Source: a virus
Taxonomy: Duplodnaviria > Heunggongvirae > Uroviricota > Caudoviricetes
Length of the DNA stretch: 47,797 bases
Virus record (IMG/VR): IMGVR_UViG_2571042438_000008
Direction: 5' to 3' (one strand)
Shown here: piece after piece, positions 3,167 through 44,736 of the stretch
How positions within the stretch are numbered: the first letter of the stretch is position 1
Layout of the letters: each line of letters opens with the position of its first letter
Program-made: the position numbers and the translations under genes
The notes under the pieces: generated by a model
What the model was told of the DNA's origin: nothing
Seen by the model: the letters and a program-made list of their open reading frames with translations, nothing else
Databases searched by the model: none

Positions 3167-3783
3167 TGGCATTCAGAATGAGTGAACAATCACGTACCGT
3201 AAAAATTTATAACCTGCTGGCCGGAACTAATGAGTTTATTGGTGAAGGTGACGCATATATTCCACCTCATACAGGGCTGCCAGCTAATTCTACAGATATC
3301 GCCCCACCGGAAATTCCTGCTGGCTTTGTGGCAGTTTTTAACAGTGAAAATGAATCGTGGAATATTGTTGAAGACCATCGTGGTAAAACGGTCTATGACG
3401 TGGCGTCGGGGGACGCATTGTTTATTTCTGAACTCGGACCGCTACCAGAGAATGTCACCTGGTTGTCGCCAGCAGGGGAGTATCAGAAGTGGGACGGCGT
3501 ATCCTGGGTGAATGATGAGGAAGCAGAAAAACTGTTTCGGATACGGGAAGCGGAAGAGAAAAAGGCAAGGTTGATCCAGGAAGCAACAGATAACATCGCA
3601 ATTCTGCAGGATGCAGTTAATCTTGAAATAGCAACAAACGAGGAAAATTCACAACTGGATTCCTGGAGAAAATACAGAGTATTAGTGAGTAGAATTGACA
3701 CCAGTACAGCTCCGGATATCGTATGGCCAGAGCTGATGAATCAGGGTTATGTTCGGGAGGACGAGCAGATAACTTCAGACTGA
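3166..3783 (+). CDS. tfa: Tail fibre assembly protein (Tfa / P2 G / Mu U family)
   Basis: The start overlaps the fibre stop (TAATG). The N-terminus ..[47 protein letters not shown].. is typical of the Tfa chaperone family. Confidence 0.85.
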
Positions 3784-4310
3784 AATTTAGTGATGAATGT
3801 TGAATCATCAGGAATATCATGCAATACCAATGCATGAGCACCTATTGTGACATTGTTTCCTATACGCACTTTGCCACCAAGAATGGTGGCATTACAACCA
3901 ATGGTCACATTATGCCCTATAACAATATCCATATCATTAAATTCCCCGCGAAGTCCAATAGTTACTCCGGGCTTAATTGAACAATTTTCACCGATTGTTA
4001 CTTTGTGACCGATAACAACACTGTTGAGATAAGAAATATCAAAGCCTTTCCCTATATTTACAGTTAAAGGGACTGTTACATTATATTTATCAAGAATGAA
4101 ACGTTCTATTTTTCCCGCAATCTTCCGACAGTATCCGCCTTTATCAAAAAGGTATTTGGCTATGCGCCACCAAAATAAATAACGAACCCTTCTATGTTTT
4201 ATTGCGCGAACAATTGCCTTTCGCCAGGAGAAAGGACGCTCGCTACCGATTACTTCATAGTGAATACAGTCTTTAAGTTCATTAATATTCATATCTTTAT
4301 TATTCAGCAT
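3747..4310 (-). CDS. Hexapeptide-repeat (LbH) O-acetyltransferase, WcaB/CysE-like; probable moron
   Basis: Repeated [LIV]-G-x4 hexapeptides ([49 protein letters not shown]). It is convergent with tfa and overlaps its 3-prime end by 37 bp. The region is visibly more AT-rich than its neighbours. Confidence 0.8.
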
Positions 4311-4725
4311 AAGATAATCATGTGACCAATTATTGTAATAATTTTAATGGTATGTTTCTACTGGCTATCCAGCGTGTCTGATATCCAGTAACAAATCGTC
4401 AACACGGGTGCAATCAAATGGTGAGTGTTAAGACTGACCACTTATTACCAGGTATGAGTGGCCAGCATTAAATCAGAACAGCCCTTTAACTGAACTGGCC
4501 GCGCTGTTAAGGGATGATGTCACCTTATCTTTGAAGCCGGACAGCATATTGCTGAACGATGAGTTTACCGCAGGTTTCTGGCTGGGAATCATTGACTGGA
4601 GTTAGGCCAGTAGTATGATGCTCGCAAAACGAGATCCAATTTAGATCCTTTTACTGGTGGATTATCGTTCGATCAGTGAGAGACTTCGTGCATGACCGAA
4701 AGTGTTGTGGTAGAGTTCTCTTAAA

Positions 4726-4740
4726 ACCACGTAACGTGGT
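4726..4740. promoter_or_regulatory. Perfect ACCAC-N5-GTGGT palindrome (operator-like) upstream of the repA control region
   Basis: The sequence is ACCACGTAACGTGGT. The same 5+5 palindrome occurs at the cI/cro intergenic region (14748, 14851) and downstream of cI (13997). Confidence 0.5.
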
Positions 4741-4782
4741 TATGATTGTGGGTGTCTGGTTGGAAAGTGACCAGATATGGAA

Positions 4783-4897
4783 ACAAAAAGCCCGCAGATA
4801 AATCTGCGGGCTTCTTGCGACATCCACGGAAAACCAACAACTAACCATGGGCGCCTCGACAACTCCCATTATACGTTGGTTTTCCGTGGACGCAAGA
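4783..4897 (-). ncRNA. Candidate CopA-like antisense RNA controlling repA
   Basis: Read on the minus strand there is a 22-bp interrupted stem (4814-4838 / 4875-4896) with a 36-nt loop. It is followed by the GC hairpin GCCCGCAGA-TTTA-TCTGCGGGC (4790-4811) and a U-run (complement of 4781-4789). A weak promoter-like TAGAGA-N17-TATGTT sits just upstream on the minus strand. The position immediately 5-prime of repA matches IncFII copA/copT. Confidence 0.55.
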
Positions 4898-4905
4898 GCG
4901 AACAT

Positions 4906-5754
4906 ATGGATAGACCAATGCCGTCTCTACGTTCAGCTTACGTTTGTAATTTGTCGCCGGAGTTCCAGCCTCCAAAGCACCATACGCACAAGCTGCCGCT
5001 GGTGTTATCTGATGCTTTACAGCGCATTAATGGGCGTGATCTTACGTGTGAGGTTGCGTTCTACGTTAATCAACCGTCAGAGCGGAAGCGCCGGATAAAC
5101 GAGCATCGTCGTCGGGCGATTAATGCTGTGATCGCTGCGATTTTGCACCATGTAAACATCATTTCTAAGCGGGTTCTGGCCAGTGCTGAGGCGTTGGCTG
5201 ATTTTTGCGGCCTGTCTACCGTATCCGAAGCTGGGAACAAGTCTATAACGCGCTGTACAAGGGCGTTGTCGCAACTGAAAGCGTTAGGTTTTATTGATTA
5301 TGAACGTCGCTGGGATCGGGTGAATAAACAGTATTGGCCAGCGAAAATAGAGATTCGTGATCAACTGCTGGAAACCGTTGGTATTACTGAACAAGCATGG
5401 AGACGTGCGGTTAGCCAGAAACTTAATTACTTCAATGCGAAGAATAGCGAACGGCTTAAAAAAGCGATAACGGAGGCTGATTATAAGCGTATTGTTATTC
5501 AGGAGCAGATGGAGAATGTATGGCATCAGAGGAAGACGGCCAGAGAGATAAAGGCAAAACAGAAAGCAGCGGAGAGAGCTGCGCGTCTTGTTCGGGAAAA
5601 GGGAGAGGCCGAACTTCGTCATCAAATCACTAGAGAGGTTAGCCAGGAATTTGCTGATGGCATGTATCCTGGAGCTGACCTTGCATATTTACGATCCCTC
5701 GTTGAGCAGCGTTATAACAGGTTAAGAAAGACCTGGAAATCACTCCAACATTAA
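4906..5754 (+). CDS. repA: Plasmid replication initiator, IncFII RepA family
   Basis: 282 aa from ATG 4906; the ORF is open from 4777 but that part is the hairpin region. The core RRAINAVIAAILHH..GNKSITRCTRALSQLKALGFIDYERRWD parallels the R1/R100 RepA1 core as I recall it (RRAIDALLQGLCFHY..GKLSITRATRALTFLSELGLITYQTEYD). A DnaA box and an AT-rich origin follow the gene. Confidence 0.85.
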   Translation: MDRPMPSLRSAYVCNLSPEFQPPKHHTHKLPLVLSDALQRINGRDLTCEVAFYVNQPSERKRRINEHRRRAINAVIAAILHHVNIISKRVLASAEALADFCGLSTVSEAGNKSITRCTRALSQLKALGFIDYERRWDRVNKQYWPAKIEIRDQLLETVGITEQAWRRAVSQKLNYFNAKNSERLKKAITEADYKRIVIQEQMENVWHQRKTAREIKAKQKAAERAARLVREKGEAELRHQITREVSQEFADGMYPGADLAYLRSLVEQRYNRLRKTWKSLQH

Positions 5755-5759
5755 CCCAC

Positions 5760-6030
5760 CTGAATGATGAATCCGGTTTTACCGGAGGATTATCTACGTC
5801 GCAATAAAATATCTGTTCAAAAAACAATCTAAATTAATTTTCTCTAAACCGGAACACAGCAAAAATATCGCCTTTACAGGCATCGGCTAATAAAGTTATC
5901 CACAGTTTTGATATGTATATGCAAATGGTTTTTTATAATAGATGCACTAAACAAATAAATGCAAAATCACTTTCTTTTATTAAGACTTTCTTTATTTAAC
6001 TTACGCAGGCTTTGCCTGTGAATATGTTCG
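5760..6030. other. Probable plasmid origin (oriR-like, AT-rich, downstream of repA)
   Basis: An AT-rich, ORF-free block directly after repA, as in IncFII replicons. It contains a consensus DnaA box. Confidence 0.6.
5896..5904 (+). promoter_or_regulatory. DnaA box, perfect consensus TTATCCACA
   Basis: An exact 9-mer inside the AT-rich region after repA. Confidence 0.7.
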
Positions 6031-6342
6031 CCCTTGCAGCGAGCTAAAGCTCGCGCCGGTTCGAGTCGCTACGCTCAAATATACCTCCTCCGGCACTTGC
6101 CGGAGGCATGGAGCAGCCTGATCATCCTTTTCGAAACGGCGCGTTTCGAACTATACAAAATCAATTTATATAAGGCCGAAATAAGGCCTACGGCCGGGCT
6201 TTGCAGGAGGAAGGGGCGAGCCTTATCAATAAACGTCGAGAAATACGCACACAGTAGCCATCAGAACGCGATAAAACGTAAGAAACATCATTTCCTATTA
6301 GACATAGAAAACTTGTCTTATACGCAATGTAGTAAATTTCTA

Positions 6343-9239: not shown

Positions 9240-9776
9240 CAGTCTGAAATTTAAATCTTGCTTGGTAGGCTGGATTTAAAAAGACACCTCTTGATTGGGG
9301 CGGCTTTCTTGCGTCTAAAGATAATCAAATCTTTTTGCGCCTGCAACCCCTTTTTTACTGGTGCCCATTTCAGACTCACGCTCGCGTCGTTGTCTTTGCC
9401 ACTTCGTTGGGTTCGGTGTTTTTGGGCGAAGTGGCGCGCGGGTATGCGTACAAGGGGAAAGTGTGCTGACGCAAGCCAGGAACAGCGATCTAAACTAAGT
9501 CGAGTCTGAGAAAGGCAGGAGTGCGACAACTCGCCTGTGCTCTATGAGCAGAAGAAGGTATATCAGACGACCAATGGCATGATTGTGGGCCACAGGGCGC
9601 ACACGGCGGCGAAGCATTGGAAACGATGTGGAGCTATCTGGTGGCATGAGTTCCGGTACTCGATCTCGAGCTTTTTTTGATGCTTTTGAGAAGGGGCCGG
9701 AACTCCGGTAAAGGGCACCCTGTATGGGGGGAGGGGGGGTTGTGTCTGAAGGGTGGCTATCGGTTATGGTGGAATT

Positions 9777-9965
9777 ATGATGCGTAGAAAAGCGAGTTTG
9801 CTGCAAGCTATTGGGTCCATTATTTCTTTGTTTCCGGCAGTTGATCATTTTCGTCATATGGCGACACGTTCGAGTATGGGCTTGGCGCGTGACGCTGACG
9901 CTATTCGAAAGGATTTTCAGAAAGTCTCTGGTGTTGATAAGAGAGAAAAGAGTAAGGGGCCGTAG
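9777..9965 (+). CDS. Small hypothetical protein (62 aa; ORF open from 9753)
   Basis: MMRRKASLLQAIGSIISLFPAVDHFRHMATRSSMGLARDADAIRKDFQKV.. is not low-complexity. GGTGGA lies upstream of ATG 9777. The ORF ends inside a GC hairpin. Confidence 0.35.
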   Translation: MMRRKASLLQAIGSIISLFPAVDHFRHMATRSSMGLARDADAIRKDFQKVSGVDKREKSKGP

Positions 9966-9971
9966 CCCCTT
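9954..9971 (-). terminator. GC hairpin after the antirepressor gene stop
   Basis: AAGGGGC-CGTA-GCCCCTT. On the minus strand it is followed by a pyrimidine/U-rich tract. Confidence 0.45.
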
Positions 9972-9975
9972 GTAG

Positions 9976-11175
9976 TTATGGTCTGCTTTTCTGTGCCAGC
10001 TTATCAGCACATGTTTTTATCAGATCCTGTAGTGTCCTGGCTGGCAGGTTTGCATCCAGTACGCTGAGTATGCTGTTGTGATCTGCTTGGTCGACTACTT
10101 TGCCTGTCGGTGGTAGTAGCTTGAGCTGAGGATTCAGGTTTTCGTCAAAGCTGATAAGTGCTCTGGCGTTTCTGAGCAGATCAAGAAGTAAGGCTGATAT
10201 CACATTTTCCTGAGTCATTGCTGGCAGACTTAGCGCCGCTTTGGTTTTCCCTGTTGCCTTGTCAAACTCCTTGATTAGTTCCTTCCTGTAGTTCGGTTCC
10301 GTTAATAGCCGATTATGCTCTGTTGCCGCGCGGATAATCGTTTTTTCCTGGTATAGTCGTTTAGCCAGATCACGCTCGTACTGTGTTTTTAACACGCTGC
10401 TGATAGCGTTAAAGGCTTCAATGTAGGCCAGCTTGATATCTTTCACGCCTGGACCGTCGATGCTCTCCATGAGCAAGGTAAATCCGTCTTTTGTCATGCG
10501 ATAGATTGTTATTTCGCGGTCGCTTCCTTCCAGCGGTCGTTGCTCTTTAAAGAAGTGACGCGCCGCAGCCGTGCGAGGAATGCGTAGCGCATCGATGGCC
10601 ATAACGATGGAATTGTTTGTGGTGCTGAATGCCTGGGCAACATCGGCTGAGGTTGTGAGTGGCTCGTTGTTGCACACTTTAATGTAAAACATCGGTTTGG
10701 CGTTGAGCGTATCGACAACCTCACGAGCATTGCTTGGCGAGACGGTTACGGTCGCGGCCGTTTGCGCGTTCCGGCTGAAATAGCAGTCTTCCAGCCGTTC
10801 GAACACATCCCACGCTTGGTTAGTTTCAAGCATTTTGGCGTGACGTGCAGCCCCGCGTTCTGTCCAGAGAATGAGGGAGCGGGCTTTCGGGGAAATTTGT
10901 AACCCTCTTAAAGATGGTTGCACATTTTGTGAGTTACTTAAAGTAACCCGCAAATTTTGTGAGTGACTTAAAGTCACTCGCAAAGTTTTTAACTCATCGC
11001 CAGCCACTTTGAAAAAATGCTTTCCTTCAATAAAGCGGTTTGCGTTACGTGAGTAATTTTTTTTGATGTTATCAACGTCTGTGCCGTATAGCTTTGCCAG
11101 TAGTTCAGTAGTGATAACGGGGATCTGGTTATGCAGGATAGGCTGTAGGGTGTTAACGGTCGGAAGCGTTTTCAT
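9976..11175 (-). CDS. ant: Antirepressor-like protein (N-terminal ORF6N/KilA-N-like domain + Rha-like domain)
   Basis: The N-terminus IPVITTELLAKLYGTDVDNIKKNYSRNANRFIEGKHFFKV...ILWTERGAARHAKMLETNQAWDVFERLEDCYF is ORF6N-type. The middle EPLTTSADVAQAF..IYRMTKDGFTLLMESIDGPGVKDIKLAYIEAFN is Rha-type. The start overlaps the upstream ORF stop (ATGA). Confidence 0.8.
   Translation of the reverse strand: MKTLPTVNTLQPILHNQIPVITTELLAKLYGTDVDNIKKNYSRNANRFIEGKHFFKVAGDELKTLRVTLSHSQNLRVTLSNSQNVQPSLRGLQISPKARSLILWTERGAARHAKMLETNQAWDVFERLEDCYFSRNAQTAATVTVSPSNAREVVDTLNAKPMFYIKVCNNEPLTTSADVAQAFSTTNNSIVMAIDALRIPRTAAARHFFKEQRPLEGSDREITIYRMTKDGFTLLMESIDGPGVKDIKLAYIEAFNAISSVLKTQYERDLAKRLYQEKTIIRAATEHNRLLTEPNYRKELIKEFDKATGKTKAALSLPAMTQENVISALLLDLLRNARALISFDENLNPQLKLLPPTGKVVDQADHNSILSVLDANLPARTLQDLIKTCADKLAQKSRP
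10921..10980. repeat. Two tandem 30-bp repeats inside ant, each holding a 5-bp-arm palindrome (GTTAC-TTAAA-GTAAC / GTGAC-TTAAA-GTCAC)
   Basis: 10921-10950 and 10951-10980 differ at 4 positions. Two of those differences are compensatory (T:A to G:C) and preserve the palindrome. Confidence 0.8.
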
Positions 11176-11399
11176 TTTGCACCTCCCATAACTACTTTGG
11201 TTACGAGGGAGATTTTTGCGTCAGAAACAGCGTTATCGTTGCTGGCGATGCGCATAGCTTCGCGCTCGATGATTTCAGTCAGGCGGAATTTATCGGCGTA
11301 TGAGGCTTTCTTGAGAAGGATCTTTACGAGGTTGACGTAATAGTCATGGGGTAGGTTTGTCATTGTGATATCTCCAGTATATGGAACTATCACCGCCAT
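11172..11399 (-). CDS. Small protein translationally coupled to ant (position equivalent to P1 icd); alternative start ATG 11363 with a GGAG Shine-Dalgarno
   Basis: 75-aa ORF (63 aa from 11363). Its stop overlaps the ant start codon. I make no family call. Confidence 0.55.
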   Translation of the reverse strand: MAVIVPYTGDITMTNLPHDYYVNLVKILLKKASYADKFRLTEIIEREAMRIASNDNAVSDAKISLVTKVVMGGAK

Positions 11400-11413
11400 T
11401 CGAGGCTAATCAA

Positions 11414-11497
11414 ATGGTGGTGAGCCGTACAGGGTTAGCCTTACCGGACACAATGACGAACCGGCGCGGATTTCTCCGCCCCTGTACGACCCACCAT
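11414..11497 (-). ncRNA. Candidate structured regulatory RNA (c4-like) in the ant operon leader
   Basis: An 84-nt three-way structure. The outer stem is ATGGTGG/CCACCAT (7 bp), the second stem GTACAGGG/CCCTGTAC (8 bp), and the inner hairpins are GCGGA-TTTC-TCCGC (11466-11479) and CCGG..CCGG (11444-11464). The loop segment AGGCUAA (minus-strand RNA) is complementary to UUAGCCU, which occurs in two flanking direct repeats GAUUAGCCUC (11402-11411 and 11567-11576). Confidence 0.35.
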
Positions 11498-11525
11498 AAT
11501 TTGGGCGTAACAGTGCTCTACGCAT

Positions 11526-11545
11526 AAAAAAACCGCTAACGCGGT
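11526..11545 (-). terminator. Rho-independent terminator (minus strand) inside the ant leader
   Basis: On the minus strand ACCGC-GTTA-GCGGT is followed by T7. Confidence 0.65.
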
Positions 11546-11658
11546 ATGCGCCATCGTGTTATTCAGGAGGCTAATCCCGGCCGTAGATTTTGCTACGGCT
11601 CGGAAAGTGTCCACCAATGGCGCATTTATGTCAATACGGCGGGATTTTAACAGAGACA

Positions 11659-11673
11659 ACCACATAGCGTGGG
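11659..11673. promoter_or_regulatory. Near-perfect operator-like palindrome ACCAC-ATAGC-GTGGG in the ant leader
   Basis: 9/10 match to the ACCAC-N5-GTGGT family. It lies beside a minus-strand TAAAAT -10-like hexamer. Confidence 0.4.
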
Positions 11674-11807: not shown

Positions 11808-12116
11808 CAAAAGGTAATAATAGTCCACTATTATGCTTCAAAAAATTGTGGTTCTTGTTGTGCCTGCAAACTCACAGATTGTGGGTAGGTTACTGATTTT
11901 GTGAAAATAAACGAGTTTTTTCGTTTAATTTCTTTCCTATTACTAATCTTAAAATAATCGTAAAATACCTGTGGACCTTCCCGCCGATTCGCACCCGGGC
12001 ACCGACTTTAGGGGAGGATTCTCCGTTGCCGTACATGCAAGCACAAGCAGCCGTGCTTGCTCTCGCGTTGTTTTCGTCGGTGGGGATGCCGTGAAACGGC
12101 CTGTAAGGGCCATACA

Positions 12117-12239
12117 ATGAAAAAATACTGTATGTGTATTTTTATCGTTGTTACTGGGGCTTTGTTTACGCCACATGGGGAGGGTTGGAAGATTACTGAT
12201 AACGCTCTGAATGTGACGATAAACATTAGCAGCAAGTAG
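12117..12239 (+). CDS. Small hydrophobic peptide (40 aa), candidate type I toxin or small membrane/secreted protein
   Basis: MKKYCMCIFIVVTGALFTPHGEGWKITDNALNVTINISSK. A strong plus-strand terminator follows immediately. A TAAAAT -10-like hexamer at 11961-11966 would give a ~145-nt structured 5-prime UTR. The Shine-Dalgarno is weak. Confidence 0.4.
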   Translation: MKKYCMCIFIVVTGALFTPHGEGWKITDNALNVTINISSK

Positions 12240-12244
12240 CGATT

Positions 12245-12268
12245 AGGCCCCTTCGGGGGCCTTTTTTT
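12245..12268 (+). terminator. Rho-independent terminator (plus strand)
   Basis: AGGCCCC-TTCG-GGGGCCT followed by T7. Confidence 0.8.
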
Positions 12269-12751: not shown

Positions 12752-12786
12752 TTATATAAATCTATAAAACTATAATTATATATTAT
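12752..12786. repeat. AT box (TTATATAAATCTATAAAACTATAATTATATATTAT) between parA and the parG-like gene
   Basis: Member of the dispersed AT-box family built from TATAATTATA and ATAAATCTATA words. Confidence 0.7.
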
Positions 12787-13451
12787 GCGGCAGTAGTCAG
12801 AGCCTCAAGCTGGTTGATAATCCCCTGAATAACGTCGTCTGCCTTTTTGCGTGGCGCAACGTATGAGCACTCAATGAGGCTTAAGCCCTTATCCTGAGCT
12901 TTGCTCAGAGCTGGCTTGTGGGGAATGTACTTATCGACAACAAAGTATGGCGTATTAGCCAGGTACTCTTGGGCTTCAATATAGTCAGCTTCGTTTTCAG
13001 CCGCGCCGGAAAACACCATGCAAATTTTCTTGATTGGTACACCCTTTTTAACGATGCCGTGAGCAGTGTTAACGGTGGTTTCCAGGTCATCGGTAGAGAA
13101 TCGGGTTGGCAAAATAACCATATCCAGAAATTCAGATAGCTTCGGTACTGATTCAGATGCGTAGGCACCGCCATCGACGATAACCAGGTCGTATACTTCT
13201 GATTCGATGATTTTCTGGACTTGTGATGGTGTGCCGCACGGCTGCGCCGCGATTGCTGGTTCGATATTGTTGGCCATTCTGCGTTGTACCCAACGCGTTA
13301 CCGTTCCGTTAAGCACATCCATATCGATCAGGCATACATTCCAGCCAGCCTTTGCATAAGCAACTGCTAAAGCACGGGCAATTGTTGATTTGGTTACGCC
13401 GCCTTTTCCGTTGAAAATACCTACAGAGATAGTCATTTGTCGAGGCTCCAT
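12783..13451 (-). CDS. parA: Partition ATPase ParA (type Ib, deviant Walker A)
   Basis: GKGGVTKST Walker A box. 222 aa with no N-terminal HTH extension. Confidence 0.9.
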   Translation of the reverse strand: MEPRQMTISVGIFNGKGGVTKSTIARALAVAYAKAGWNVCLIDMDVLNGTVTRWVQRRMANNIEPAIAAQPCGTPSQVQKIIESEVYDLVIVDGGAYASESVPKLSEFLDMVILPTRFSTDDLETTVNTAHGIVKKGVPIKKICMVFSGAAENEADYIEAQEYLANTPYFVVDKYIPHKPALSKAQDKGLSLIECSYVAPRKKADDVIQGIINQLEALTTAA

Positions 13452-13459
13452 GTGTTTGG

Positions 13460-13491
13460 TTATATAATTCTATAAATCTATATTTATAGAA
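13460..13491. repeat. AT box upstream of parA (TATATAATTCTATAAATCTATATTTATAGA)
   Basis: AT-box family member. Candidate centromere/operator. Confidence 0.7.
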
Positions 13492-13530
13492 CGAGGTAAG
13501 CATAACCAACTTTTTGGCTGATGAAAAGCG

Positions 13531-13565
13531 TTTTATATAATTATATAAATCTATAATCATATAAG
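13531..13565. repeat. AT box upstream of parA (TTTTATATAATTATATAAATCTATAATCATATAA)
   Basis: AT-box family member. Candidate centromere/operator. Confidence 0.7.
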
Positions 13566-13586
13566 CGGGCGTTAGCCCGCTTGCAG

Positions 13587-13961
13587 TCAGAGGTCAGCTA
13601 TCGTTGATATCAGTTGATTTGCTAGCTGTCGCTGTTTACGTGAGAGGGTTAGAGCAGCTTCTGAGCGGTCGCTAAGAGGGGGGGTTTCATCAAGAATCAT
13701 GAGGCATACAGAAATAATAGCCCTGTTATATGCCATCAATGGCTGGCACAGCTTCGATACCGCTGGCACATCGTATTGTAAGGCCGTTTTGAGGCAGACT
13801 TTTTGTTCTGATGCCAGATGAAGGATAGATTCTATCCAGTCGATATCTTTCTCATTATCAATGATTTGGCATAACATACACTCAATCGCTATGTTCAACG
13901 CTTGGATTTCGATTCCAGCAGTGATCAGAGTTTCGTTTTTATTGGCTGTATGTAATTCCAT
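13587..13961 (-). CDS. Hypothetical protein
   Basis: 124-aa ORF between cI and the par locus, with an AAGAGG Shine-Dalgarno. Confidence 0.6.
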   Translation of the reverse strand: MELHTANKNETLITAGIEIQALNIAIECMLCQIIDNEKDIDWIESILHLASEQKVCLKTALQYDVPAVSKLCQPLMAYNRAIISVCLMILDETPPLSDRSEAALTLSRKQRQLANQLISTIADL

Positions 13962-13996: not shown

Positions 13997-14011
13997 ACCA
14001 CAAAATGTGGT
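13997..14011. promoter_or_regulatory. Perfect ACCAC-AAAAT-GTGGT palindrome
   Basis: Located between the cI stop and the next minus-strand gene, overlapping a TTGACA hexamer. Confidence 0.5.
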
Positions 14012-14053: not shown

Positions 14054-14710
14054 TCATAACCAGTTGACAACACTAACTACGCGGCCAAGAACTTTATAAC
14101 GCTTAAATTCCTCGTTATTCAGATGCTTAGTGTTCATTTCAGCATCCCTTTCGGTTGACAGCATAACAGCATTGTCACCCGGTATGACTCTACAGTGCCT
14201 CAAAACAACCAGGCCATTTCTGTCTTCAAGGGCATAGATCCCCTCATGAATCTCTGTATCGTCTGTATTAATCAGGACTTGGGAGCCTGGGGATATTGTT
14301 GGTGACATTAACTCATCGTTGCTCTGGAGAACTGACAGAGACGATGGGTTGATGTTCTTGCTTCGTAGAATCTCCTGTTCTATCGCCAGCACTGGCTTTT
14401 CTCCGGCGTGCGATGCTATGTCATTTTTTATAGCTACAAGCCCAGGAATAACAGGAGCGTTAGTATTCTGGGGTGGGAACGGGTTATCTGTTAAGCACGC
14501 GATATAAGGCGCTGATGCTTTCAGGGCGTGCGCGATTTTCTTGATGGCAGGTATAGATGGTTGTCTTAATCCGGCCTCATAGTTCTGCAAGGTGCTTAAG
14601 CCTATTCCAGTGACTTGCTGGAGATCTCCGGCAGTCATGCCGGATTGTTTCCGTAGAGTCTGAATGCGCAGACCTATTTCTTTCTTGATGTTCTCGTCGT
14701 TGCTTTTCAT
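14054..14710 (-). CDS. CI-like repressor (XRE HTH + S24 LexA-like C-terminal domain, catalytic dyad apparently substituted)
   Basis: The N-terminal HTH is MTAGDLQQVTGIGLSTLQNYEAG. The C-terminus aligns by eye to the S24 fold: DELMSPTISPGSQVLIN against GDSMEPTI.dGd.vlv, and GLVVLRHCRV against ..vvKRl... The gene is divergent from a Cro-like gene across an operator-rich region. Confidence 0.85.
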   Translation of the reverse strand: MKSNDENIKKEIGLRIQTLRKQSGMTAGDLQQVTGIGLSTLQNYEAGLRQPSIPAIKKIAHALKASAPYIACLTDNPFPPQNTNAPVIPGLVAIKNDIASHAGEKPVLAIEQEILRSKNINPSSLSVLQSNDELMSPTISPGSQVLINTDDTEIHEGIYALEDRNGLVVLRHCRVIPGDNAVMLSTERDAEMNTKHLNNEEFKRYKVLGRVVSVVNWL

Positions 14711-14747
14711 GTCTCATCAATCGTGAATGGTGGGTTATTTATACATT

Positions 14748-14762
14748 ACCACATTTAGTGGT
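14748..14762. promoter_or_regulatory. Operator: perfect ACCAC-ATTTA-GTGGT
   Basis: In the cI/cro divergent intergenic region. Confidence 0.6.
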
Positions 14763-14850
14763 TTTCACATGGTAAGACGAGAGGTGGACCACAAATAGAA
14801 GGTTATTTTTTGTTTCGCCCATTGAAAAACTCACGATATGTGGTTTTAAT

Positions 14851-14865
14851 ACCACGTATCGTGGT
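14851..14865. promoter_or_regulatory. Operator: perfect ACCAC-GTATC-GTGGT
   Basis: In the cI/cro intergenic region. Degenerate relatives lie at 14788-14804 (ACCAC-AAATA-GAAGGTT) and 14830-14844 (CTCAC-GATAT-GTGGT). Confidence 0.6.
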
Positions 14866-14884
14866 TTTAACTGGAGTTCGTTAA

Positions 14885-15379
14885 ATGACCTTTCAGGAGT
14901 GGGTTGACGAAAATGGAGGCCAAATTGGTGTTGCCAGAAAGTTTTGCTTTACGTCATCACTGATTGGTGCCTGGTATCGCTTCGAGAGATTCCCTCGTGC
15001 GGATAACCTGACGCTGCTGGTGGCGTATTCGGAAGGCCGGATTAACGTCCAGCAATGGGCGGCAGATTTTGCCGAACGTCAGCGCCAGCGTAGCGATGGC
15101 ACATCGGTTCGGCAGAACAAGATCAAAGGGAATCTCCCTGTTAACTGCTTATCAAGGCTGAAAGCGGTTTTCTCTGAGCTGGGGATGCCTGCGGAGCGTT
15201 GCAATCTACGCGGTCCGCGATTCATTGCTCGCTGGAAACACTCACACGTAACCGTTTCAGAGGTTCGTGATGCGATTACCGTGCTGGAGCTTAAGAATAA
15301 AGATTCCAGCGATATCGAGCTGATTCATAAGGAGATTAGCAACGCCCGGCGTTCAGCACTTGGGAGGCTTGAGGAATGA
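14885..15379 (+). CDS. Cro/YdaS-like HTH protein with C-terminal extension (first gene of rightward operon)
   Basis: Divergent from cI. The N-terminus QEWVDENGGQIGVARKFCFTSSLIGAWYRFERFP resembles the Cro/YdaS-type HTH. Confidence 0.55.
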   Translation: MTFQEWVDENGGQIGVARKFCFTSSLIGAWYRFERFPRADNLTLLVAYSEGRINVQQWAADFAERQRQRSDGTSVRQNKIKGNLPVNCLSRLKAVFSELGMPAERCNLRGPRFIARWKHSHVTVSEVRDAITVLELKNKDSSDIELIHKEISNARRSALGRLEE

Positions 15380-23199: not shown

Positions 23200-23275
23200 G
23201 GCCCCTTAGCTCAGTGGTTAGAGCAGGCGACTCATAATCGCACGGTCATCGGTTCAAATCCGGTAGGGGCCACCA
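23200..23275 (+). tRNA. tRNA with anticodon CAU, tRNA-Ile2 (ileX-like) rather than Met
   Basis: A 76-nt cloverleaf, GGCCCCTTAGCTCAGTGGTTAGAGCAGGCGACTCATAATCGC..GGTTCAAATCC..GGGGCCACCA, with the anticodon at 23233-23235 and an encoded CCA. The 5-prime half is identical to E. coli ileX as I recall it. The acceptor stem has C4-G69 and C5-G68. Confidence 0.9.
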
Positions 23276-32700: not shown

Positions 32701-34271
32701 ATATTCTTGATCGAGTTATTGCGCCGTTTTCACCTCAGAGGGCATTAAATCGAGCTTTGGCAAGAAAACGGTTAGAAGCACTTGAAGGTATTAATAACCT
32801 TGGATATTCACGTCATGGTGCAAGCACTCATAAAAAATCATTAAGGGGTTGGTTTAGTAAAGCTGGTTCTCCTGATGATGATATTGTTAAAAATATAGAT
32901 AAATTGCGTGAGCGTTCTCGTGATCTCTTCATGGGAAACCCGCTATCGGTTGGCGCAATAAAAACTATCAGGACAAACGTTGTTGGTTCCGGTTTAAAAC
33001 TAAATGCGAACATTGATGCCGATTTCTTGGGGATGACGCAGGAAGAAGCGCGAGCATGGGAAAAGCATGTTGAGCGTGAGTTTAGATTATGGGCTGATTC
33101 TCCAAATTGTGATGCATCAAGAATGTGTACTTTTGGACAATTGCAATCATTGGTCCAAATATCTGCGTTAACATCTGGCGATATATTTGCTGCGCTACCA
33201 GTTATTAAGCGTAAGGGTGTTATATATGATTTGTGCGTCTATTTAATTGAAGGTGATCGTGTTTGCAATCCAGAGGATCGTTTTATACCAAATCTTTACG
33301 GTGGCGTAGAGGTTGGTGAATTTAGCGAGCCTGTGGCGTACTGGGTTGCAAAACATCACCCAGCCGGGACTTCTGGTTTTGTAACCCGCAAGTGGGAACG
33401 TATTCCCGCATATGGGAGTAAAACAGGAAGAAGAAATATTCTGCATGTCATGCAGGATTTTGAAAGGCCTGGGCAACGCCGTGGCGTTCCTGTCCTTGCT
33501 CCTGTAATTGAAGCATTGAAGCAGTTAGGACGATACACCGATGCTGAATTGGTTGCTGCGGTTGTGTCAGGGATGTTTACTGTCTTTATTAAAACAGACG
33601 CTCCTGATGGGCCAGTCGGTGAATCGGGTATCCCTCAGTACGAGCAGATCGATAACCATGATGATAACACCCAAGAAATGGGGAATGGCTCCATAGTAAG
33701 TTTGGGTGAAGGTGAGTCGATAGATACAGCAAATCCCGGGCGACCAAATACGGCATTTGATGGTTTTGTTGTCGCCATATGCCGTCAAATTGGGGCTGCT
33801 TTAGAACTCCCTTACGAACTCTTGGTAAAGCATTTTACAGCAAGTTATAGCGCAAGCAGGGCCGCATTACTTGAAGCCTGGAAAATGTTCCGTATGCGAC
33901 GTGACTGGATGGTTCAGTCATTTTGCCAACCGATCTATGAGGAATGGTTGGCCGAAGCCGTTGCTAAAGGTCGTGTTATTGCCCCTGGTTTTTTTTATGG
34001 GCCTGAATATCGCGCTGCATGGAGTGGCGCTCAATGGTATGGCCCATCACAAGGCCAATTAGATCCCCTTAAAGAAGTCAAAGCTGCAAAACTGCGTGTT
34101 GAGGAAACATTCTCTACCCGTGAAAAAGAAGCGGCTGAAATGTCAGGTCTTAACTGGGAAGAAACCGCACAAATCTGTGGCAGAGAAGAGAATGCTCGCC
34201 GTGAGTTGGGGCTTATTACACCTCCTGTTTCTGAGGTAAATGAACAAAATATGGAGACTGATGATGCCTAA
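32697..34271 (+). CDS. Portal protein, lambda gpB family
   Basis: 524 aa, with position and size matching lambda-type portals. Confidence 0.85.
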   Translation: MNILDRVIAPFSPQRALNRALARKRLEALEGINNLGYSRHGASTHKKSLRGWFSKAGSPDDDIVKNIDKLRERSRDLFMGNPLSVGAIKTIRTNVVGSGLKLNANIDADFLGMTQEEARAWEKHVEREFRLWADSPNCDASRMCTFGQLQSLVQISALTSGDIFAALPVIKRKGVIYDLCVYLIEGDRVCNPEDRFIPNLYGGVEVGEFSEPVAYWVAKHHPAGTSGFVTRKWERIPAYGSKTGRRNILHVMQDFERPGQRRGVPVLAPVIEALKQLGRYTDAELVAAVVSGMFTVFIKTDAPDGPVGESGIPQYEQIDNHDDNTQEMGNGSIVSLGEGESIDTANPGRPNTAFDGFVVAICRQIGAALELPYELLVKHFTASYSASRAALLEAWKMFRMRRDWMVQSFCQPIYEEWLAEAVAKGRVIAPGFFYGPEYRAAWSGAQWYGPSQGQLDPLKEVKAAKLRVEETFSTREKEAAEMSGLNWEETAQICGREENARRELGLITPPVSEVNEQNMETDDA

Positions 34272-37178: not shown

Positions 37179-37522
37179 TGAACTCCTTCAAAGAGGTTAT
37201 AGCGCAAGATATTTCTGCAATATTCCTCAATGAAAAAGAGTTTGCCGATACATATAACATAGACGGCAAGGATATCCTTGCCGTTATTGATACAGACCTT
37301 ATTCATGAGCGTAATAAACGCTCATATGCTGAGTTTGCAGAGGGAATAAATCAGGGGCAAATAATATTATTTGTTTCAAGAAAAGATTTTCCTGTTCTCC
37401 CTGTCAAAGACCAGTCAATGAAAATCAACGGTAAAAGTTATATTGTTGATGAAGTATCAGATAATGTTGGTGTATTGGAAATAACTCTCACTGTTAATAC
37501 TAACAGAGGAATGCCGATTTGA
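37178..37522 (+). CDS. Head-tail connector/adaptor candidate
   Basis: 114-aa ORF with an overlapping junction, positioned between the head and tail modules. Confidence 0.5.
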   Translation: MNSFKEVIAQDISAIFLNEKEFADTYNIDGKDILAVIDTDLIHERNKRSYAEFAEGINQGQIILFVSRKDFPVLPVKDQSMKINGKSYIVDEVSDNVGVLEITLTVNTNRGMPI

Positions 37523-43534: not shown

Positions 43535-43745
43535 TTATAGAACGGTTCAAGGGGACTCATGGGATAGTATCGCTTTAAAGTTGTATGGTAATGAGTACCT
43601 GTCTTATCTTCTTATTGATGCTAATACTGAGCACCGCTTTACGGTGCTTTTTTCTGCGGGAATTATTCTTAAAGTTCCTGATGCTCCGGTTATGCCAATA
43701 TCAGTAAACAATTTTCCTCCGTGGAGACGCAATAGTGTTACGTAA
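43527..43745 (+). CDS. Tail protein X-like (LysM domain)
   Basis: YRTVQGDSWDSIALKLYGNEYLSYLLIDAN..ILKVP is a LysM pattern, as in P2 gpX. Confidence 0.7.
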   Translation: MDDYRTVQGDSWDSIALKLYGNEYLSYLLIDANTEHRFTVLFSAGIILKVPDAPVMPISVNNFPPWRRNSVT

Positions 43746-44736
43746 AACGCTTTTTGATGTTATATATCAGAATGTAAATATTACCGCTCATATGTCACCT
43801 GATGTTTTGTCAATGTCTTATACAGATAATGAAGATGGTCAGGTCGATGATATTTCTATTATATTAAAAAATGATGATGGGAAATGGTCTGGAGACTGGA
43901 CACCTAAAAAGGGTGATTTTATTGATTTGAGCTTTAAGCCTATAAATCAAATCGTCCTTGAGTGCGGGAAATTCCAGGTAGATGGCATAACTTGCTCTGG
44001 ACCACCTTCTGTGGTTGAGGTAACTGCTGTTTCTGTTCCTATTTCATCAGGCATTAGACGTGATTTAAAAAGTAATGCATGGGAAAAAACAACTCTTAAA
44101 GATATAGCAACTTCTATAGCTAAATTAGCTAACCTTGAACTGTTGTTTCTTATTGATGGTGATAGTAATCCATATTATGCACGTGAAGATCAAATGGAGG
44201 AAAGCGATTTAAAATTTCTCCATCGACTTTGCCAGGATGAAGGGTTGTCGTTAAAGGTCACTGATAGCCAATTAATAATATTTGCTCAAGAGATGTTTGA
44301 GCAAAAAGATCCTATCGCTACGCTTACGTTAGGTATTGATGAGATAATCAGATATAGCTTTAGCACACAATCTACAGATTTGTATAAAAGTTGCACGTGC
44401 AAATATCGCGTACCTAAAAAAAGAAAGTCGCTTTCGTATACTTGGGTAGATCCATCCGTAGAAGAAGGGTCGAATCTTAAGATAAGAAAACTGGTAGCTA
44501 ATTTAGATGAAGCAAAACGTAAGGCAAAGGCTGCTTTGCGGCTTAAAAATAGATATCAAAATACCGGATCTTTAGTATTGGTTGGAGACACCAGATTGGT
44601 AGCTGGTGTAACTATAAATCTGGAGGGATTCGGTTCATTTTCTGGAAAATATCTTATATCGAAAGCTGTGCATTCAATTGGGACTAGTGGTTATACCACC
44701 TCGATTGATGTCCGAAGAGTAATTAATGGGTATTAA
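43735..44736 (+). CDS. Baseplate hub / late control gpD-like protein
   Basis: 333 aa, positioned after X and before the spike. The size and position fit gpD/Mu gp44-type proteins. Confidence 0.65.
   Translation: MLRKTLFDVIYQNVNITAHMSPDVLSMSYTDNEDGQVDDISIILKNDDGKWSGDWTPKKGDFIDLSFKPINQIVLECGKFQVDGITCSGPPSVVEVTAVSVPISSGIRRDLKSNAWEKTTLKDIATSIAKLANLELLFLIDGDSNPYYAREDQMEESDLKFLHRLCQDEGLSLKVTDSQLIIFAQEMFEQKDPIATLTLGIDEIIRYSFSTQSTDLYKSCTCKYRVPKKRKSLSYTWVDPSVEEGSNLKIRKLVANLDEAKRKAKAALRLKNRYQNTGSLVLVGDTRLVAGVTINLEGFGSFSGKYLISKAVHSIGTSGYTTSIDVRRVINGY

Follow-up and report, generated by a model that had tools for sequence, protein, structure and literature searches.

The 47,797-nt window analysed here (IMG/VR record IMGVR_UViG_2571042438_000008, in whose positions all coordinates are given) is essentially the whole of a circular myovirus-type phage-plasmid of ~48 kb. 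This analysis concerns the control region of its replication gene repA, which is read from the + strand and which carries, just behind a repA promoter, a palindrome resembling the operators of the phage immunity switch. The window encodes tail, head and lysis genes together with ParA, a HigB-like toxin module, a cI-like repressor and an immI module in the style of phages P1 and P7. Its repA region is 99-100% identical to that of ~60 non-mobilizable plasmids of 46-52 kb from E. coli, Salmonella and Klebsiella, among them a plasmid of the quality-control strain E. coli ATCC 25922, NZ_CP009073.1, whose control region is 98% identical to that of the window, and 99% identical to that of the infectious Yersinia pestis myophages vB_YpM_39, 41 and 44; the phage-plasmid family therefore forms virions. 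The relatives are circular records.

The phage-plasmid relatives used for comparison were L008 (RepA 85% and cI 65% identical to the window, with a nearly identical helix-turn-helix domain), L009 (RepA 81%), Serratia marcescens plasmid p2 (L013; RepA 30%, cI ~33%), which carries TEM-1, and a 20.8-kb locus on a Citrobacter freundii contig (L204; RepA 60%, cI 27%), the last two having the same gene order as the window. The conjugative plasmid L203 (RepA 63%) and the K. pneumoniae plasmid p09A18011_A_KPC (L014; RepA 37%) served as plain-plasmid comparators. No related loci were found via RepA in the genome-contig collection. Because the Citrobacter-type control region had zero matches in PLSDB and the phage collection, co-variation in this type was followed in L204, the one NCBI contig that reaches the immunity region, while four Logan/JGI contigs stop short of it.

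Two promoters were recognised upstream of repA (Table 1). The distal one, promoter P1, had been missed in an earlier note made on this DNA from the sequence alone; judged by its hexamers it is a strong conserved second promoter, with a similarly strong hexamer pair at the equivalent place in L008, Serratia and the Citrobacter type, whereas L009 has kept the -10 alone. The proximal one, promoter P2, is an extended -10 element of the form TGnTAGAGT which is kept in all four phage-plasmid lineages despite divergence of its flanks and of which the window has only 2 copies. Behind P2 lies the core ACCACGTAACGTGGT (4726-4740) of the 17-bp palindrome. In each of the four lineages the site is centred 17 nt past TGnTAGAGT, with divergent bases in between, and the predicted operator, at ~+2 to +17 of P2, is in the classical position for repression. 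This placement resembles that at the rightward switch promoter TTGAAA-17-TTTAAT, which is directly followed by ACCACGTATCGTGGT. Taken together, P1 and P2 resemble the layout of R1, in which a repressible proximal promoter lies behind an upstream one (cf. PcopB/PrepA). The GATC cluster between them is found at the equivalent place in all phage-plasmid lineages, L013 and the Citrobacter type included, as well as in the plain plasmids L014 and L203 (37-63% RepA identity), a conservation that suggests methylation- or SeqA-linked control of repA transcription.

The motif ACCAC-N5-GTGGT occurs in 5 exact copies in the 47.8 kb of the window (4726, 13997, 14748, 14851 and 44001), where ~0.05 would be expected, with one-mismatch copies at 11659 and 26185. 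In 100 shuffled sequences the sites with at most one mismatch numbered 0.81 +/- 0.91, and never as many as the 7 of the window. Of the exact sites, two (14748 and 14851) are inside the 174-bp cI/cro-side intergenic region (14711-14884) and a third (13997) is just past the end of cI; the earlier note's observation that a perfect 5+5 palindrome upstream of repA recurs twice in the cI/cro intergenic region is confirmed by this count. The part common to the sites is limited to the 5+5 half-sites, the central 5 nt varying from site to site. By eye, the switch operators overlap the rightward promoter and the leftward cI promoter, and the same cI/cro-side operator layout is present in L008, L013 and L204. 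Within L008 and Serratia, the repA-proximal site is matched best by the counterpart of the 13997 site (at 10838 and 33580, respectively).

Comparison between lineages showed that the repA site and the immunity region change in concert. Half-sites are unchanged in L008 and L009, and the central spacers differ (GTAAC, GTTGT, GATGT), which is the pattern predicted for a dimeric DNA-binding protein. Further away the type of the site itself differs, being ACCAC/GTGGT in the window, ACTAC/GTAG in the Citrobacter relative L204 and CGAAATGTGGTTTT in Serratia. The repA site of L204 is ACTACAAAACGTAGC, and its cI/cro region holds TTGTAGT half-sites; all six TTGTAGT words of this locus lie at the repA site or in the cI/cro region, and ACCAC-N5-GTGGT is absent from it. 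An unbiased word test was also made in each lineage, in which the 36-nt stretch following the -10 was compared with all other parts of the locus and the longest exact word in common was taken. The immunity region was found to hold a longest word in four of four lineages, for a chance expectation of 0.003-0.6: the 11-mer TTAAAACCACG at 14860 in the window (tied with an unrelated 11-mer at 9579 and 45356), the 14-mer TTTAAAACCACGTT at 10845 in L008, the 14-mer CGAAATGTGGTTTT at 33580 in Serratia and the 12-mer TTGACTACAAAA at 19559 in L204. In the four-lineage alignment, lineages with ACCAC sites have GIGLSTLQNYEAG as the recognition region of the repressor, and those that use ACTAC have GIPRST(L/I)QNYEAG; the aligned helix-turn-helix domains differ just where specificity would be expected to reside. 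Scans for the 15-mer CGCCTCGACAACTCC returned chance matches only in the genome contigs and, in the viral contigs, chance matches along with loci of lineages already collected, as checked by tblastn. Enrichment, fixed spacing from the -10 and half-site co-variation lend comparative support to the proposal, first made in the earlier note, that the palindrome is a phage-switch operator placed at repA, and 4725-4741 is very probably one of the family of operators used by the cI/cro-side switch.

Other explanations of the site were weighed against the same observations. Any palindrome folds as a hairpin, here at the predicted 5' end of the P2 transcript, the symmetric changes from ACCAC/GTGGT to ACTAC/GTAGC would also fit a stem, and the leader of plain plasmid L014 also contains ACCAC-N8-GTGGT; the site might on these grounds be a stabilising or structural 5' stem-loop, or a chance occurrence whose likeness to the switch operators is coincidental. 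Such an account is nevertheless very unlikely, since it fails to predict that in each of four lineages the repA site has a longest word, specific to the lineage, in common with the immunity region, nor does it predict the confinement of the L204 TTGTAGT words (6/6) to the repA site and cI/cro region, the 14-nt match of the Serratia site, a poor palindrome, to an immunity-region site, or five exact copies where ~0.05 are expected. Occupation of the site by RepA itself, as autoregulation, or by another plasmid-maintenance protein in place of the immunity proteins seems hardly credible. In other replicon families rep promoters are commonly autoregulated, and RepA and the site are adjacent and co-inherited. 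However, the origin region 5755-6100, where RepA must bind, holds no copy of the motif at up to one mismatch, which argues against RepA as the binder, and the other copies cluster at the cI/cro switch and track the helix-turn-helix type of the repressor rather than RepA identity. It also counts against this explanation that autoregulation is not known for RepA of the IncFII type, as in R1.

Table 1. Features of the repA control region, origin and immunity region in the window
Feature	Position	Strand	Basis or remarks
Promoter P1, TTGACT-16-TATGAT	4592-4619	+	Promoter scan, 10/12 matches; proposed basal repA promoter, predicted start ~4626
GATC (Dam) cluster	4633-4674		Just downstream of P1; first two sites in direct repeat AGATCC-N5-AGATCC
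Promoter P2, extended -10 TGgTAGAGT	4708-4716	+	Conservation, read by eye; predicted start ~4723
Operator-like palindrome AACCACGTAACGTGGTT	4725-4741		17 bp, core ACCAC-N5-GTGGT at 4726-4740, ~+2 to +17 of P2
Rho-independent terminator of countertranscript	4781-4811	-	Hairpin 4790-4811, U-run 4789-4781
Proposed countertranscript, ~80 nt	4783-4861	-	5' tail GUCGAGGCG, stem-loop I, terminator stem-loop, U-run; ends predicted from promoter and terminator
Long interrupted hairpin, invariant apical loop GCCUCGACAACUCC	4814-4896	+	Fold, compensatory changes; proposed repA-leader target
Proposed countertranscript promoter TTGCGT-16-TATAAT	4868-4895	-	-35 at 4895-4890, -10 at 4873-4868; conservation
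repA	4918-5754	+	Pfam PF02387, NF040977; start from homologue comparison
oriR-like region	5860-6066		DnaA box, ATGCAAA-type repeats, A+T-rich block, conserved GC hairpin block 6000-6066
immI-like module, P1/P7 style	9976-11673	-	isrK-like RNA, C4 antisense RNA, ORF, antirepressor
ORF6N/pRha antirepressor	9976-11175	-	
75-aa ORF of immI module	11172-11399	-	
C4 antisense RNA	11413-11501	-	70.8 bits
isrK-like RNA	11526-11599	-	68 bits
Further operator ACCACAAAATGTGGT	13997-14011		Between cI end and 124-aa gene 13587-13961
cI-like repressor	14054-14710	-	HTH_3 (E=4.5e-11) and degenerate S24-like C-terminal domain
Switch operators ACCACATTTAGTGGT / CTCACGATATGTGGT / ACCACGTATCGTGGT	14748-14762 / 14829-14843 / 14851-14865		Motif search
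cro-position gene, 164 aa, phrog_7452	14885-15379	+	No Pfam match; alternative candidate binder

The replicon to which this site belongs had been called IncFII-like in the earlier note, and its RepA indeed matched both Pfam IncFII_repA PF02387 (E=7.2e-44; cut-off 22.9 bits) and NCBIfam RepA_IncFII_LM NF040977 (231.8 bits; cut-off 70). It scored below the classical incFII_RepA equivalog TIGR03474 (78 bits vs a cut-off of 446.9) and is just 27-41% identical, over partial alignments, to annotated IncFII RepA proteins. Between 4311 and repA no conserved open reading frame (ORF) was found, the small ORFs there not being kept in L008, L009, L013 or L204, and this bears out the reported absence of a copB-like gene. 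By these family assignments the replicon is a member of the IncFII/IncL-M superfamily without copB, and not a classical IncFII replicon (R1/R100).

The repA frame is open from 4777 to 5754 and contains in-frame ATGs at 4906 and 4918, the former having been taken as the start in the earlier note. RepA homologues at 58-85% identity are mostly 277 aa long and begin at the equivalent of ATG 4918, and the ATG next to the stem (the 4906 equivalent) is in frame in the window lineage only, being out of frame in L008 and L009; the conserved start is consequently ATG 4918 and not ATG 4906. The reading frame does run open through the hairpins from 4777 in the window, as had been remarked, but in relatives this extension is broken by indels. 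The RefSeq model that begins at 4777 and passes through terminator and hairpin (WP_001704997.1, 325-326 aa) was rejected as over-extended on account of these indels and of the 277-aa homologues. A leader peptide, left as a possibility in the earlier note, did not emerge either: no conserved tap/repY-like ORF was found when the three frames were read across 4740-4925 in the window and relatives, and the candidates at 4742-4801, at 4847-5098 and in frame from 4777 are missing or broken in relatives. In the Citrobacter type an additional ORF of 158-162 aa lies between the control region and repA (9516-10004 in both L201 and L204; also in L205 and L207). It shows weak similarity to IncFII_repA and overlaps the repA start by ATGA; partial duplication, splitting of the initiator and a coupled leader gene are candidate explanations.

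Downstream of repA, the perfect DnaA box TTATCCACA is present at 5896-5904 in an A+T-rich block (76-80%), just as the earlier note had described, 142 nt past the repA stop. The box is kept 133-156 nt past the stop in all phage-plasmid lineages examined (with one mismatch in L008), along with the ATGCAAA-type repeats and the GC hairpin block, the adjoining blocks having an A+T content of 70-82% in the compared lineages, and sequence blocks of the origin are conserved as far as relatives with 30% RepA identity. Of the two plain plasmids, L203 has a DnaA box with one mismatch at the equivalent place, whereas L014 lacks a box at this position. The left border of the replicon module is at 4564, where similarity to the Yersinia-phage and E. 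coli relatives begins; a 96-bp remnant at 4468-4563 matches tail-fibre genes of P88/P2-like phages, and a hexapeptide acetyltransferase gene (3747-4310) stands where the Yersinia phages and many E. coli relatives carry a hin/pin DNA invertase.

Folding of the minus strand of 4778-4905 gave a long interrupted hairpin (4814-4896) and a GC hairpin (4790-4811) followed by UUUUUGUUU, with an energy of -69.5 kcal/mol vs -35.2 +/- 3.3 for shuffled sequences (z = -10.4). Both hairpins and the U-run, from which a CopA-like minus-strand RNA had been proposed, are thus formed where the earlier note had put them. Since the U-run follows the terminator hairpin on the minus strand only, a countertranscript is likely. 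In L009 one A-U pair of the terminator is replaced by G-C, a compensatory change, and the Serratia and Citrobacter types have a hairpin of other sequence in the terminator role. The arms of the long stem are wholly different between lineages with their pairing retained. Compensatory pairs number 3 among the E. coli/Salmonella sequences, and between lineages both sides of the apical 5-bp stem are altered in step (AUGGG/CCCAU to AUCGG/CCGAU). The CopA part of the proposal did not hold: the Rfam CopA model gave no match at its gathering score, nor at E<=10 in 4500-6100, so that the proposed countertranscript would be of a different sequence family, and the long stem-loop probably lies outside the RNA. 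Among other known antisense RNA families just sub-threshold chance matches were obtained (Thr_leader, CsrC terminator).

The sole conserved minus-strand promoter lies inside the long hairpin, which would place the start of the countertranscript at ~4861 and leave the long stem-loop out of it. Counterparts of this promoter are TTGCAT-18-TATAAT in the Citrobacter type, TTGCTT-17-TATTAT in Serratia and TTGCTT/TTGAAA-16-TATAAT in the plain plasmids L014 and L203, and the shape predicted for the 80-nt RNA (tail, stem-loop I, terminator) is alike in 6 sequences from 4 lineages. A countertranscript of ~80 nt, running from ~4861 to 4783, is on these grounds moderately favoured, and on this model the long hairpin is assigned to the repA mRNA leader. 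In the alternative, a CopA-like RNA of ~115 nt that starts at or beyond 4897 would comprise the long stem-loop and the terminator and act by loop-loop kissing near the repA ribosome-binding site. The very stable folding of the minus strand into that very shape speaks for such an RNA, and the conservation of the hairpin, being strand-symmetric, is compatible with it. It nevertheless appears rather doubtful: no promoter for a long antisense RNA was found past the stem on the minus strand by scan or by eye, the hexamer pair that it would need downstream of the stem being absent from the window and L008; TATAAT with TTGCnT 16-18 nt upstream is kept inside the hairpin in all lineages; the distance from this inner promoter to the terminator (87 nt) is near that of the evident antisense promoter of plain plasmids (77 nt in L014; also L203); and CopA matches are lacking even at the permissive threshold.

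Retaining the ~80-nt countertranscript, its possible effect on the repA leader was examined by structure prediction. When the antisense target was blocked, the predicted unpaired probability of the 4918 start region fell from 0.52 to 0.26 in the window, and the same predicted trend was obtained in L008, L009, L201 and L202. The idea that antisense pairing frees the 3' arm of the hairpin, which would then fold over the start-codon region, is weakly supported by these models. A pseudoknot partner for the invariant loop was looked for near the repA start; the only candidate, GGAGUU at 4959-4964, is not kept in L008 and was rejected.

As for the proteins of the switch, the cI-like repressor matched Peptidase_S24 with E=0.0018 (18.4 bits, under the cut-off of 23.3), and at the position of the catalytic GDSM motif of LexA and lambda CI it reads, by eye, DELM in the window and DDLL in the Serratia and Citrobacter relatives, suggesting that the catalytic serine is absent. 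In view of this motif and the sub-cut-off S24 match, the repressor may not self-cleave, so that induction would use an antirepressor. No LexA box was found near the immI/antirepressor operon, the only CTGT-N8-ACAG being at 37491. An operator-like site, ACCACATAGCGTGGG at 11659-11673, lies ~25 nt upstream of a TTGACA -35, and the switch repressor may also control the antirepressor operon. The 13997-14011 operator overlaps the likely -35 of the 124-aa gene 13587-13961 (phrog_7632), upstream of ParA (12783-13451), and A/T-rich repeats at 13452-13590 look centromere-like; the regulon of the repressor may reach the partition region. Homologues of cI in the phage collection are limited to the window family and Vibrio phages at 26-30% identity, so the motif is not tied to CI apart from the cro-side gene. 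Elsewhere on the phage-plasmid, a full-length match to the ryfA RNA family (11971-12267, + strand; 141.8 bits, E=1.7e-36) lies between the immI module and the partition genes, and a tRNA-Met gene (anticodon CAT) is at 23200-23275.

Taken as a whole, these observations are rather likely to be best explained by a circuit in which an immunity-repressor operator acts on the P2 promoter of repA and the ~80-nt countertranscript adds a second layer. repA would be read from two conserved promoters, P1 and P2. Since the palindrome is of the same family as the switch operators, the prophage repressor encoded at 14054-14710, and possibly the cro-side protein as well, would occupy 4725-4741. In the plasmid-prophage state the repressor would shut P2 and perhaps hinder read-through from P1, a role corresponding to that of CopB at PrepA in R1; once the repressor is inactivated, P2 would open, RepA synthesis would rise and the same replicon would help lytic amplification. 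At the post-transcriptional level, the countertranscript would extend from the promoter within the long hairpin as far as the minus-strand terminator. The apical loop of the leader hairpin, which is invariant, has its complement in the 5' tail of this RNA; according to the in silico refolding, pairing would free the 3' arm, which would fold onto the ribosome-binding region of start codon 4918. No other initiator or helicase was recognised among the proteins screened in the early region beyond the switch (15.4-21.8 kb) and the small ORFs of 6.4-9 kb, the latter only partly screened; the sole other replication candidate there was a DUF3560 protein, to which PHROG gives a weak 'primase' label. 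It is plausible that RepA is also used for lytic replication, and derepression of P2 would then make ready sense.

Several points weigh against this circuit. Occupancy of the operator and its effect on copy number are what we infer from sequence and from the placement of the site. P2 was picked out by eye on account of its conservation; it lacks a convincing -35, and the promoter scan did not flag it. Repression cannot be complete with P1 lying upstream of the operator. The exact copy at 44001-44015 is inside a tail/late gene (43735-44736), lacks the A/T flanks found at the other sites and has no obvious role. The Serratia repA site is an imperfect palindrome. The ACCAC-N8-GTGGT word in the repA leader of L014 (9886-9903) occurs in a plain plasmid without phage repressor, and it is clear from this case that similar words can arise in other ways; the L014 word may be fortuitous, form an RNA hairpin or be bound by that plasmid's own small regulator. 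On the RNA side, the -35 of the countertranscript promoter fits the consensus at 3/6 positions and was left unflagged by the promoter scan, and the refolding prediction shows no effect in Serratia (0.19 vs 0.19). Finally, CI and the cro-side protein co-vary jointly with the sites, so that the binder cannot be assigned between them.

This joint co-variation also leaves room for a genuine operator with another logic, in which the cro-side protein would shut plasmid replication during lytic growth, or CI bound at repA would serve looping or cooperativity with the immunity region. Operators dispersed in this way (13997, 11659, 4726) recall a regulon of many sites like that of phage P1 C1, and the Cro protein of PY54 does not bind at repA sites, so that members of such families differ (PMC4488713). 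Set against this, shutting off repA in lytic growth would leave the phage without a recognisable replicon, no other initiator being recognised, and the placement at +2 to +17 is the classical one for repression; a logic of this kind is considered unlikely.

The circuit so proposed is concrete and easily testable, and it concerns a common element, present as ~60 complete plasmids and as infectious Yersinia phages. To our knowledge, the mechanism by which low-copy maintenance is reconciled with lytic amplification is known for very few phage-plasmids, essentially P1 and N15. If the circuit is true, the gain of a single operator would suffice to rewire the control module of a replicon to a phage switch, which would explain the absence of a copB-like gene from these phage-plasmids. 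Immunity type and replication control would then have to co-evolve, with a bearing on incompatibility, superinfection and the stability of resistance-carrying phage-plasmids. Searches of the available literature by accessions, Yersinia phage names and topic found no work on replication control in this phage-plasmid family.

Among known systems, R1 and R100 share with the window the PF02387 RepA, an origin with a DnaA box ~140 nt past repA, a countertranscript of the leader and a promoter pair of the PcopB/PrepA kind. The window differs from them in having no copB, the proposed repressor coming instead from a phage switch 9 kb away, in that no tap-like peptide was found, in a RepA that misses TIGR03474 (78 vs 446.9 bits) and in the lack of an Rfam CopA match; moreover, its countertranscript probably starts in the long leader hairpin, which would entail recognition by a 5' tail rather than loop-loop kissing. 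The plain plasmids whose RepA proteins are nearest, L203 and L014, resemble the window in RepA family, GATC cluster, an antisense gene with TATAAT promoter and terminator, and a downstream origin block. They have a CopA-like loop of the UUGGCG type and no operator 17 nt after the -10, while the phage-plasmids carry the phage-type operator and lack the upstream genes of these plasmids, namely two HTH_3 genes directly upstream of repA in L203 and the gene of a 79-aa protein in L014. The presence of upstream regulator genes where the operator is lacking supports the substitution of a copB-type repressor by the phage switch.

With phage P1 the window shares the principle of one prophage repressor acting at scattered operators, including one at a replication function (Op53 at the lytic replicon repL, bound by C1), and also, as with P7, an immI module with C4-type antisense RNA and ant. 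In P1, C1 controls a separate lytic replicon, and the plasmid replicon, with its repA and iterons, does not depend on C1; in the window, by contrast, it is the plasmid replicon that bears the predicted operator, and a second replicon was not recognised.

The closest parallel is N15, whose control of repA also includes an RNA layer. In N15 the prophage repressor CB binds two OL operators that overlap the repA promoter and regulates copy number (PMC4488713), so that in N15 and phiKO2, as proposed for the window, immunity is tied to copy number through repressor operators at the repA promoter (PMC4488713). Repressor binding has been shown in N15 and is predicted in the window. The N15 RepA is an unrelated multifunctional protein of the primase/helicase type on a linear replicon with telomeres, whereas the window is a circular theta replicon of the IncFII/IncL-M kind, with a separate oriR, a countertranscript, two promoters, and one operator instead of two. 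The principle of a repressor at repA is hence known from N15; what is new here is its occurrence in a circular IncFII/IncL-M antisense replicon that has no copB and a single operator behind a second promoter. Demonstrably, as far as the aligned sites go, this operator co-evolves with immunity type across lineages, unlike the N15 case as described. It is about evenly balanced whether the wider account holds, in which a phage-plasmid family of enterobacteria, without the cis-encoded transcriptional repressor that fills the CopB role in R1 and the plain-plasmid relatives, put its proximal repA promoter under the prophage master repressor, independently of N15, so that P1 activity with P2 repressed would give stable low-copy maintenance, and derepressed P2 lytic amplification, from one antisense-controlled RepA replicon, its operator having co-evolved with immunity specificity in at least three heteroimmune lineages.

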